Sequence record: PQ666542 | Direction: 5' to 3' (one strand) | Source: Shigella phage sb4 | Length of the DNA: 64,000 nt | Shown: positions 3,986-6,239 of the stretch, in pieces | Layout: each line of letters starts with the position of its first letter | Position numbering within the stretch: position 1 is the stretch's first letter | Position numbers and translations under genes: made by a program | Notes under the pieces: generated by a model | Databases searched by the model: none | The model's input: the letters and a program-made list of their open reading frames with translations, nothing else | What the model was told of the DNA's origin: nothing

Positions 3986-4441
3986 TTAAAAGAGGCTGTT
4001 CATTATTCGGTAAAGTGAAGGGCCCATCACATATTGCCACTGAGTACGAGGAATAAGAGCAAAAGCATCCATCTCTGGAATCATAACGCCATCTTTATTT
4101 TCAAAATAAGACTCGCAATGGCAATTTCTGAACATCTCATGCTCTACTGGAATCGTATAATAAAATAACTGTAAGTCTTTATTACTAGAATATTTAAATA
4201 CACCTAGGTATTCTAGATGGTCTGGATTATAATTATTAAAACCAGTCTCTTCTGAGCATTCTCTTCGTGCTGCATCTAGTGCGCTTAAATCAGAATTTTC
4301 TACACGGCCCTTTTGAATATCCCAGCGATGTGCCATCATTCCAGGATTACGAGAACCAGTAACTCGTCCCATAAATAAATCTTTATCTTCTGTCATAAAG
4401 ATAATACCAGCTGATAGTGTTTTCATTTTAATTTCCTGCAT
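3986..4441 (-). CDS. nudE: Nudix hydrolase NudE
   Basis: Nudix box RRECSEETGF; 151 aa as in T4; start may be the second ATG at 4426. Confidence 0.8.
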   Translation of the reverse strand: MQEIKMKTLSAGIIFMTEDKDLFMGRVTGSRNPGMMAHRWDIQKGRVENSDLSALDAARRECSEETGFNNYNPDHLEYLGVFKYSSNKDLQLFYYTIPVEHEMFRNCHCESYFENKDGVMIPEMDAFALIPRTQWQYVMGPSLYRIMNSLF

Positions 4442-4911
4442 TCAGTGATAAAGTTATTTAAAAATTGGGTATATTTCTTTTCATCAAAAATCTTTTGCTG
4501 TCTACGTAACCGCCATGGCATTTCAATGAACACGCACCATATTCCTGATATTACTGCTGTTATAAAAATATTAACAAGCAGAGTAAAAAGAGCCCAATCT
4601 CCTATTCTATCCATTGGATTTTTTCCAAAGAAATAAAATACGAATGATGACACAGGAAGACTAATGATATACCATAAAAGCATATTCTTGCCTGTAAACC
4701 AATCAGCGTTCGTTAACTTAGCACGACCGTTTTGAATACATACGAACTTATCATCTGTTACAGTAGATGGCTTAGCTGCTTGATATCCCATTCTAAACTC
4801 CCTAATTAATCGTTTCTTTGTATCTTCAGAACAGCCGCTCCAGTCAACTCTATCAACTGAAATGCCATCGTCCCCATCATCTAAATCATACCAGCGAGTT
4901 TTTAAAATCAT
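4423..4911 (-). CDS. Small membrane protein, C-terminal FITECRKLK
   Basis: Hydrophobic segments; ATGA overlaps at both ends. Confidence 0.5.
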   Translation of the reverse strand: MILKTRWYDLDDGDDGISVDRVDWSGCSEDTKKRLIREFRMGYQAAKPSTVTDDKFVCIQNGRAKLTNADWFTGKNMLLWYIISLPVSSFVFYFFGKNPMDRIGDWALFTLLVNIFITAVISGIWCVFIEMPWRLRRQQKIFDEKKYTQFLNNFITECRKLK

Positions 4912-5282
4912 TTGATTTTCCTACAATCACTCACAAACTCTTTCATTGATTCATTTTCAATATAAGACATGTAGTTATTATATTCTTTTAATTGTATTTT
5001 GTAATCCTTTTTTCTTTGCCAATTTATTTTAAAATTATCATAATGAAAATATAAAATAATACCAAAGAATGAAAATAATGAAATTACTATAGTATAATGA
5101 AGTTCGCTCCAAACTTCTATTATATCTACTATACCGCTGACATTACTGCGGATGTTTAAAATAAAACAGTCAATTAACAATCCAATAAGACTACCCGCAA
5201 GAGCTGCAGCCAACGCCACAGCAAAAATTAAAAATGACTCAGAAAAAGAATATTTGACTTTATTTAGTTTTGGCTTTTGCAT
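4908..5282 (-). CDS. Small membrane protein, two hydrophobic helices, C-terminal EFVSDCRKIK
   Basis: Track ORF; hydrophobic helices. Confidence 0.5.
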   Translation of the reverse strand: MQKPKLNKVKYSFSESFLIFAVALAAALAGSLIGLLIDCFILNIRSNVSGIVDIIEVWSELHYTIVISLFSFFGIILYFHYDNFKINWQRKKDYKIQLKEYNNYMSYIENESMKEFVSDCRKIK

Positions 5283-5677
5283 CGTGATTCCTTAACAAAT
5301 TTCATAATTTCATCAAATTCATACGCAGCAAGTTTAAGCTGATGTTCTTTTTTAATCTTTTTGCACTGGGCTTTCCAATCACGTACACGTTTACGATAGT
5401 GTCTTCCTTGATACCAGTATCCTACCCAATTTACAGGTACTAATAAAAACGGAACTACCAATGGAAGAATTAGTGTTGCTCCAAATATTACACCAGATTC
5501 AATATCAGTCATAACGTCTATAACCATTCCAGCAATTAGCAAAATCACAAATGATACAGCTACCACAGGACCTATTAACACATCAGTAGAAATTAGCTGA
5601 CGCTTTGGTTCATACTTCACAGGTTTACTTGGAAGGTATAGTGATGGCTTTGACATATTCTCTACATTCCTTAACAA
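5264..5677 (-). CDS. Small membrane protein, C-terminal KFVKESRCK; likely starts at ATG 5656
   Basis: Track ORF starts at TTG; AGGA precedes ATG at 5656. Confidence 0.5.
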   Translation of the reverse strand: MLRNVENMSKPSLYLPSKPVKYEPKRQLISTDVLIGPVVAVSFVILLIAGMVIDVMTDIESGVIFGATLILPLVVPFLLVPVNWVGYWYQGRHYRKRVRDWKAQCKKIKKEHQLKLAAYEFDEIMKFVKESRCKSQN

Positions 5678-6239
5678 ATTTTTCTAATAATAAATCGCTT
5701 TCAAAATTAGGATTTTCCACTAATTTATCAAAAAGATCATCAACAATAGTTAAGATATTCTTTTTACTAAGAATACGTTTATTTTCATGCTTTGTTTCAG
5801 AATCAACTATAAGAGTAAAGAAATATTTCTTTCCCTGAAATTTTACCGTAGTATCAATATAGAATAAATTTGACTTTTGTAAATTACGTTTAAACCATGC
5901 GTCACTTAAACTATAAACGCCAAGATAATCATAATCGTCGTTTAAATAACAAACCGTCCATTCAGGAGAAATGAAATCAGTAAATTCAACATCAAAATCA
6001 CACGTCAATGAATGAATTGATTCAATACTGTTAATGAGTATTCCAGGACGTATTAAAGACTTTTTACCTCTAGAAAATCTTCCGGAAAGGCTTTCATCAG
6101 TTTCGTATGAAGACCCCCAATAATAATTACGTCCTTCTGCCATGCGTTTAAGAGCATTTAGTAATTGGTCTGGAACATCAACCTGTCTTTGGAACTCTTC
6201 AAACATTGAATTGAAATCACTTTGCATTTTCATTTTCAT
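5625..6239 (-). CDS. Hypothetical protein, 204 aa, C-terminal EKFVKECRE
   Basis: Track ORF; shares junction motif with the three downstream genes. Confidence 0.5.
   Translation of the reverse strand: MKMKMQSDFNSMFEEFQRQVDVPDQLLNALKRMAEGRNYYWGSSYETDESLSGRFSRGKKSLIRPGILINSIESIHSLTCDFDVEFTDFISPEWTVCYLNDDYDYLGVYSLSDAWFKRNLQKSNLFYIDTTVKFQGKKYFFTLIVDSETKHENKRILSKKNILTIVDDLFDKLVENPNFESDLLLEKFVKECREYVKAITIPSK

Follow-up and report, generated by a model that had tools for sequence, protein, structure and literature searches.

The gene array and its C-terminal motif

The 64,000-nt stretch of Shigella phage sb4 DNA analysed here (record PQ666542; hereafter the window) carries a run of minus-strand genes named e.6, e.5, e.4, e.3, e.2, nudE and e in annotated relatives. 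Four consecutive members of this run, e.5 to e.2, encode proteins that share a short peptide motif near their C-termini and are filed in four separate PHROGs families (2607, 2604, 2330 and 2203). The window belongs to a Tequatrovirus whose near relative is Shigella phage pSs-1. Over positions 4300-6400 it shares 99.8% identity with pSs-1 and 90-95% with most other T4-like coliphages; from e.3 to e.6 no base differs from pSs-1, and in e.2 two do.

The e.2-e.6 genes are among the many T4 early genes without known function, and databases treat them as separate, unrelated families. Searches of Pfam, PHROGs and NCBIfam gave no informative family match for the four tail-bearing proteins; near-identical homologues carry the precomputed Pfam tags PF26876 (e.5), PF26873 (e.4) and PF26896 (e.2), which the local Pfam copy did not assign to the window proteins. 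A literature search under T4 gene names and UniProt-style names returned nothing relevant on these genes or the motif. The name 'sulfurtransferase', attached to e.3/e.4 homologues in several NCBI records (P0027, P0041, P0063, P0074 and others), finds no support in any Pfam, NCBIfam or PHROG model searched.

In full, the tails read ...LLLEKFVKECREYVKAITIPSK in e.5, ...EIMKFVKESRCKSQN in e.4, ...SMKEFVSDCRKIK in e.3 and ...LNNFITECRKLK in e.2, each running to the stop codon. A six-frame translation of the window yields three matches to the strict pattern F[VI]x[ED]CR[KE] and four to a looser one, all at these gene ends, while shuffled versions of the window average 0.005 strict matches. Across the whole 165-kb genome, with pSs-1 standing in beyond the window, no further open reading frame (ORF) carries the motif C-terminally. 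The shuffles and the whole-genome scan together rule out a chance origin.

A first-pass annotation of this DNA had described four consecutive genes ending in a shared motif, three of them encoding small membrane proteins. All four do carry the motif near the C-terminus, but two of them run on past it: e.5 continues for 11 residues after FVKECR (EYVKAITIPSK) and e.4 for five after FVKESR (CKSQN). The membrane assignment holds, since e.4, e.3 and e.2 each have two hydrophobic transmembrane (TM)-like segments with a basic stretch after them; e.5 has none. In relatives, the e.5 motif appears as FIMECREYVKA (Mosigvirus) and FIAECREYAK (Gaprivervirus, Dhakavirus), and e.2 orthologues at ~30% identity end in FIEECRK with CGT as the Arg codon. 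Proteins bearing the motif are called carriers below, and the features of the locus are collected in Table 1.

Table 1. Genes, motifs and neighbouring features of the e.6-nudE region, in window coordinates except for the last row
Feature	Position (nt)	Strand	Remarks
e.6	6281-6874	-	197 aa; no Cys; a carrier gene always directly downstream
e.5	5625-6239	-	204 aa; soluble; directly downstream of e.6; T4 Y06P family, phrog_2607; carries the tail motif
e.4	5264-5656	-	130 aa; Y06O family; two TM segments and a long cytoplasmic helix
e.3	4908-5282	-	124 aa; Y06N; two TM segments and tail
e.2	4423-4911	-	162 aa; Y06M family; soluble N-domain, two TM segments and tail
nudE	3986-4426	-	146 aa; Nudix hydrolase (Pfam NUDIX, E=2e-12); tail motif absent; last gene of the run
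e.5 tail motif, F-V-K-E-C-R	5661-5678	-	TTT GTT AAG GAA TGT AGA; e.4 start codon 4 nt downstream, inside the following E-Y-V codons
e.4 terminal motif, F-V-K-E-S-R	5282-5299	-	Cys shifted (...SRCK)
e.3 tail motif, F-V-S-D-C-R	4920-4937	-	followed by K
e.2 tail motif, F-I-T-E-C-R	4435-4452	-	followed by K
e.4 internal motif-like segment, W-K-A-Q-C-K	5360-5377	-	within RVRDWKAQCKKIK; aligned by MAFFT with the e.3/e.2 tails
Promoter-like site upstream of e.6	6916-6944	-	sigma-70-type, early; TTTACA-17-TATAAT, 11/12 matches, TG extension; consensus match only
Hairpin between e.6 and e.5	6257-6278		G+C-rich; transcript GGGGC-UUCG-GCCCC, UUCG loop; no U-run after it on the gene strand
ORF starting MKTYAEFLTE	8008-8571	-	start like a capsid targeting sequence
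ORF starting MKSYAQFLNE	8697-9170	-	start like a capsid targeting sequence
Second tandem family in other phages	3857-4651 (L004); 4691-5712 (L005); 5522-6103 (L029); 5299-5825 (L025)		coordinates of the respective loci

Selection acts on the peptide

The position of the tails at gene junctions raises the alternative that a nucleic-acid element (a translation-initiation region, a coupling signal or a recombination site) is what is selected, with the peptide as its in-frame read-out. In each of the four window genes the distance from the motif end to the following ATG is -7 to +8 nt, and the motif codons supply ribosome-binding sequences, as the first-pass annotation had noted, although different codons do so at different junctions. 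AAGGAA, from K-E codons (5288-5293), is the Shine-Dalgarno sequence of e.3, with a spacer of 5 nt to the ATG at 5282-5280. AGGAAA, from R-K codons, plays this part for e.2 (4917-4922) and for nudE (4432-4437), again with 5-nt spacers. At e.5/e.4 the AAGGAA of the K-E codons is only a possible Shine-Dalgarno sequence for e.4, with a spacer of 10 nt. The ATGA overlap that had been called frequent occurs at two of the four junctions, e.3/e.2 (4908-4911) and e.2/nudE (4423-4426); the e.5/e.4 and e.4/e.3 overlaps measure 32 and 19 nt, so that all four junctions are overlaps of 4-32 nt. This is the layout of a translationally coupled operon, with stop/start overlaps and a Shine-Dalgarno sequence 5-10 nt upstream within the preceding ORF, and because of these overlaps e.5, e.4, e.3, e.2 and nudE are probably coupled in translation.

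The DNA itself is not conserved. The 13-mer TTTGTTAAGGAAT, which had been reported at each junction exactly or as a close variant, is exact at e.5/e.4 and e.4/e.3. It has no match with <=2 mismatches at e.3/e.2 or e.2/nudE, which by our own count each differ from it at 4/13 positions. As a DNA repeat it was rejected, being exact at two junctions only and, with <=2 mismatches allowed, no more frequent than in shuffles. A 16-nt identity, AAATTTGTTAAGGAAT, is common to two junctions.

Among 35 carriers, every synonymous codon family is in use at the conserved residues. The motif is written with AGA, AGG, CGA, CGT and CGC for Arg, TTT and TTC for Phe, TGT and TGC for Cys, and six codons for Ile/Val. 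The e.5 motif encoded in the window as TTT GTT AAG GAA TGT AGA is TTT ATT GCT GAA TGT CGT in Gaprivervirus, where it contains no Shine-Dalgarno sequence. The Arg codon of the e.4 motif is CGA, AGA or CGT among orthologues, and that of e.2 is AGG in the window and CGT in Dhakavirus, where the downstream gene also differs. The peptide, in contrast, persists: although the window proteins and their Gaprivervirus counterparts have bodies only 17-32% identical, all four families retain F, I/V and R, three retain E and three retain C.

In several carriers of other genera the motif ends 38-71 nt before the next ATG, which opens an ORF in another frame. The window contains four ATGA-coupled ORF pairs, and the two outside the array have unrelated tails. 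Structured RNA at the junctions is ruled out by folds no better than those of shuffles (z -0.9 to +0.3) and by the lack of any Rfam match at E<=1. The changed codons, the conserved peptide, the lack of significant structure at the junctions and the unrelated tails of other ATGA pairs together show that it is the C-terminal peptide, not the DNA, that is under purifying selection, and that a ribosome-binding role is overlaid on it. Of the coupling or recombination element proposed by the first-pass annotation, the Shine-Dalgarno function survives, as does a 9-nt repeat in which a T2-type deletion crosses over inside the motif codons (see below). These are secondary to the peptide and not its cause, and an element selected at the nucleic-acid level is very improbable.

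Relationships among the four proteins

A second alternative holds that all carriers descend from a single duplicated gene, forming one diverged superfamily of tandem paralogues whose tail is merely the slowest-evolving part. Orthologue alignments built from Tequatrovirus, Mosigvirus, Gaprivervirus and Dhakavirus were compared by hhalign, with reversed profiles as controls. The e.4 and e.3 profiles align end to end (P=3e-6), and after trimming of the tails they still do so over 100 columns at P=2.8e-4, compared with ~0.17 for the reversed control. Their N-termini are also similar (MSKPSLY and MQKPKLN), and the two are probable paralogues. The similarity of e.3 and e.2 is confined to the tails, the last 21 residues (P=1.7e-7), and that of e.5 to e.3 or e.2 to the last 14-15 residues (P ~6e-4 to 9e-4). 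With tails removed, neither e.2 nor e.5 shows detectable similarity to the others. Homology of the protein bodies, which defines a tandem paralogue family, is found only for e.4 and e.3, and to this pair the earlier suggestion of tandem paralogues is reduced; e.2 and e.5 join it only through their last 14-21 residues.

The e.4 protein also contains an internal segment resembling the tails (P=0.002-0.003; reversed controls 0.17-0.22), which is kept as EWKVQC, EWEQKC and EWKEQC in Mosigvirus, Gaprivervirus and Jiaodavirus. The match is only suggestive, and the segment may tentatively be regarded as a second, degenerate copy of the tail.

The superfamily model draws further support from the layout of two TM segments, basic helix and tail common to e.4, e.3, e.2 and several carriers of other genera, from the clustering of carriers, and from an e.4::e.2 chimera (P0156) that retains the two TM segments. 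The same model has to accommodate carriers that are soluble proteins of 100-316 aa with no TM segments. An exhaustive hidden Markov model search with an e.4/e.3/e.2 profile gave 10 matches among 1.84 billion representatives, all of them T-even orthologues of the query genes, and a wider family of two-TM-plus-tail proteins was rejected on this result. Even if true, common descent would leave conservation of the tail alone unexplained. It is unlikely that the carriers form one superfamily.

The first-pass annotation had named two findings that would speak against its proposal, a lack of similarity outside the last residues and a lack of conservation in relatives. The first is largely what was found. 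The second is the reverse of what was found: the tail is very strongly conserved, and the shared peptide reaches well beyond the four genes of the window.

Carriers downstream of e.6 in other T4-like phages

The gene e.6 occurs in 1,106 phage records, e.4 in 669, e.5 in 643, e.3 in 605 and e.2 in 533. Mosigvirus has a fifth carrier, a 101-aa two-TM protein ending in ...NLENFIKECRGK. In Jiaodavirus, Karamvirus, Tulanevirus, Dhakavirus and Pseudotevenvirus, the gene directly after e.6 encodes a soluble protein of 178-316 aa with a related tail, reading, in the same order, ...EFIKYCRERVQK (to the stop codon), ...DFINYCRGQ..., ...MFVDYCRRTAPKRE (to the stop codon), ...RFIAECREYAK... and ...KFIHSCKKNV.... 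Between six genus groups, the genes that follow e.6 have no detectable body homology. The tail is also present on other small proteins encoded near e.6, some soluble and some two-TM. With tails trimmed, the carrier bodies fall into at least 17 BLASTP families, soluble and two-TM, whose genes lie no more than a few kb beyond e.6 on its downstream side in at least nine genera; all nine annotated genera that were inspected have a carrier after e.6.

The consensus is [LI](-3)-[EN](-2)-x-F-[IV]-x-[E/Y]-C-R-[K or other basic residue], numbered from the Phe. Of 27 family-by-genus representatives, 26 have the F, 24 the R and 23 the C.

This arrangement recurs in 21 further e.6 loci taken from IMG/VR with 7-kb flanks, in which F[IVL]xxC[RK] was counted in ORFs of >=60 aa. 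Downstream of e.6 on the gene strand there are 64 matches, every one of them within 26 residues of a stop codon, and upstream of e.6 on the same strand there are none in 140 kb; these loci are interrelated, with e.6 identities spanning 60 to 99%, and the counts are not independent events. The opposite strand has eight matches, two of them C-terminal. A carrier motif lies <=1 kb downstream of e.6 in all 20 loci with enough sequence.

The constancy of e.6 is striking in comparison with its neighbours: the protein is 75% identical between genera whose tail proteins are 17-32% identical. In the invariant N-terminus of e.6, KK[IL]VEFIR[TS]KLG, the [IL]-x-x-F-I spacing matches that of the tail motif.

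Between e.3 and e.2, Mosigvirus, Gaprivervirus, Dhakavirus and Karamvirus carry a second tandem family, absent from the window. Its members, three to five in number, are small and soluble, and every one has the ending G-[AG]-W-[VIL]-S-S-S-x-x-C or W-Y-[PT]-S-S-C.

Rearrangements at the tails

The DNA repeats that arise from the shared peptide are only 9-16 nt long, and the deletion joints found at this locus show that they serve in deletion formation. T2-type phages lack e.2. Their e.3 ends in ...FVSDCRK-LK and is followed directly by nudE, the loss being in-frame with its joint inside the 9-nt TGCAGGAAA common to the e.3 and e.2 tails. The hybrid e.3 (P0038) represents a cluster of 163 member sequences. 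In all eight of its genomic contexts examined, nudE comes after e.3 and overlaps it by 4 nt, in varied downstream backgrounds. In the chimera P0156, residues 1-31 of e.4 are joined to the C-terminal part of e.2, and e.3 has been removed. The tails nevertheless keep flanks specific to each orthologue, such as ENES/T in e.3, YEFDE in e.4 and ECREYVKA in e.5, which shows that they evolve vertically and not by recent gene conversion.

Smaller changes affect the annotation of these genes. T4 e.2 (L002, 2491-2961) is annotated as a 102-aa protein owing to a 1-nt deletion relative to the window, with a compensating 1-nt insertion further downstream; its tail and junction DNA are intact. In vB_SsoM_113 (L001, 3953-4927), e.5 and e.4 are annotated as one 324-aa ORF. 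Programmed frameshifting was rejected as the explanation for this fusion: the A-run upstream of the e.5 motif is 1 nt shorter (GAAAAT in place of GAAAAAT), plausibly a sequencing or assembly difference. In T2 (LC348380; L003, 3860-4831), nudE is annotated as a 323-aa coding sequence overlapping the lysozyme gene e, probably an annotation artefact.

The e gene of the window (3455-3949, minus strand) contains two nonsense codons five bases apart, from changes at 3654 and 3659 (...DAARR-TGA-GCA-TAG-INM...). Both pSs-1 and T4 read RRCALINM at this site, the changes being TGT to TGA and TTG to TAG. The 3.6 kb compared with pSs-1 contain 34 differences, eight of them in e.

A proposed docking tag and its candidate partner

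On balance, the motif appears to be a protein-level C-terminal tag at the end of a predicted α-helix, most likely a short docking helix for a common partner. Such a tag, previously uncatalogued, would link e.2-e.5 with many other orphan early proteins of T4-like phages. It occurs on differing architectures: soluble in e.5, two-TM in e.4 and e.3, and two-TM with an extra soluble N-domain in e.2. The low-confidence AF2 model of e.5 (predicted local distance difference test score, pLDDT, 59) has a C-terminal helix at residues 183-198 that runs through the motif. That of e.4, likewise of low confidence (pLDDT 63) and read for secondary structure only, places TM1 at 24-49 and one helix at 54-129 through the motif. 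On such a helix L(-3), F(0), I/V(+1) and C(+4) would share one face, followed by Arg/Lys. The positive-inside rule would put the tails of the two-TM proteins in the cytoplasm, on the same side as e.5. The tail may thereby dock fast-evolving early proteins onto one common partner, or onto each other.

As a fold, e.5 gave nothing in a Foldseek search of the PDB at E<=0.001; the top nine matches, treated as uninformative, are small alarmone synthetases (RelP, RelQ, FaRel) at E ~0.008-0.05 and TM-score ~0.18. These matches of a weak model are recorded since e.5 shares its gene cluster with the Nudix hydrolase gene nudE.

The prime candidate for the common partner would be e.6, which is always adjacent and far more conserved than its neighbours. 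A disulfide between tail and e.6 is excluded, since e.6 has no Cys. A fuller model, put forward tentatively and with more doubt than confidence, is a hub-and-tag system in which a conserved early protein, with e.6 as candidate, would recognise the C-terminal helix L-E-x-F-I-x-x-C-R and recruit exchangeable, rapidly evolving small soluble or inner-membrane effectors encoded directly downstream. Recombination at the repeats that encode the tag could supply it to new effectors, which would need nothing more to join.

The purine-rich tail codons (AAG-GAA, AGG-AAA) double as the Shine-Dalgarno sequence of the next cistron, a secondary consequence of genome compaction, and the short DNA repeats left by the shared peptide are occasional substrates for deletions such as the T2-type loss of e.2.

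Several observations weigh against a docking tag or against e.6 as its partner. A Cys at the canonical position is absent from e.4 in all genera, and five e.3 clusters lack the tail through a frameshift; some members can accordingly do without it. The e.5 and e.4 models are both low-confidence predictions. Among the two-TM carriers there may be paralogues that have diverged very far, and this would lower the number of independent acquisitions. The candidacy of e.6 comes from adjacency and co-occurrence in loci that were all selected for containing e.6, and profile searches of Pfam, NCBIfam and the PDB (the last at E<=10) gave it no kinship to a known hub or scaffold family or to a solved structure. 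A PspA/IM30-like hub with PspB/C-like small membrane partners was considered for e.6 and rejected on sequence grounds, with no match in Pfam (PF04012, E<=1) or NCBIfam and none to solved PspA or Vipp1 chains in the PDB profile search at E<=10.

A different role for the tail would be in processing or turnover, either as a site cut after [IL]-x-E in the manner of the T4 prohead protease or as a degradation tag. Many tails read [IV]-x-E-C, which is similar both to the I/L-x-E at which that protease cuts and to the F-[IL]-x-E in the capsid targeting sequence (CTS) that T4 proteins carry at the N-terminus. Position +3, however, is not conserved as E, with Y, M, S, K, Q, G, H, D and N also occurring there, and the invariant residues are instead F, I/V, C and R. 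The motif is C-terminal and not N-terminal, and the carriers, being early proteins and in many cases membrane proteins, would be unlikely contents of proheads. A processing or turnover signal is hardly credible on these grounds.

A docking tag would be of practical value. The shared peptide connects e.2-e.5 with a dozen or more other orphan families from phages that infect Escherichia, Klebsiella, Cronobacter and Aeromonas. A peptide of ~10 residues, three or four of them mutable, would be a handle for finding the common partner, from which the function of a hyperplastic-region block could follow. The shared peptide also illustrates how a sequence of this kind, lying within overlapping genes, influences ribosome-binding sites and gives rise to hot spots for deletion.

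Comparison with known systems

The repeats at the tails recall the PeSL (promoter-early stem-loop) cassettes of T4-type phages (Arbiol et al. 2010, PMC2839356; Comeau et al. 2014, PMC4122927). By the definition in PMC2839356, these are intergenic and consist of a sigma-70-like promoter and a stem-loop. In both cases repeated short sequences border non-essential genes in hyperplastic regions and mediate insertions, deletions and modular shuffling. The tail junctions differ in having no intergenic DNA, promoter or hairpin, and their repeat of only 9-16 nt is a product of the shared peptide. A PeSL cassette was rejected here because the junctions are overlaps with no stem-loop; the one strong promoter-like site and the one hairpin lie on either side of e.6.

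The array also resembles ATGA-type translational coupling, in the ATGA junctions of e.3/e.2 and e.2/nudE, the longer overlaps of e.5/e.4 and e.4/e.3 and the Shine-Dalgarno-like hexamer upstream of each start. Coupling accounts for the purine-rich K-E/R-K codons, but not for the conserved F, I/V and C.

Among protein signals, the LPXTG, PEP-CTERM and GlyGly-CTERM tags of bacteria begin with a signature, continue with a TM helix and finish with a basic cluster, and they occur on exported proteins. They share with the phage tag the use of a short C-terminal signature that marks unrelated proteins for one machinery, with basic residues after it. The phage tag differs in having no TM segment after the motif and a tail predicted to be cytoplasmic. 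A sortase- or exosortase-type sorting signal was rejected because the motif is followed by 1-26 mostly polar or basic residues and no TM helix.

The nearest analogue is the CTS of the T4 internal proteins IPI, IPII and IPIII. The CTS is an N-terminal peptide that targets soluble proteins into the capsid and is removed by the prohead protease. Like the tail, it is a short peptide on otherwise unrelated proteins encoded by exchangeable cassettes, in the same hyperplastic T-even region, and its core, F-[IL]-x-E, resembles that of the tag. The window probably has internal head protein genes of its own, namely the two ORFs with CTS-like starts in Table 1. The tail is distinct from the CTS, which has the form MK[TS]Y-x-[EQ]-F-[IL]-x-E at the N-terminus: in all 64 matches the motif lies <=26 residues from the C-terminus, the N-termini of e.2-e.5 differ from the CTS, and the tag has an invariant Cys-Arg and sits on early proteins, both soluble and two-TM. 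If the hub-and-tag model were true, the system would be the C-terminal, cytoplasmic counterpart of the CTS, and the tag would be the second T-even example, after the CTS, of a short address peptide that groups unrelated proteins.

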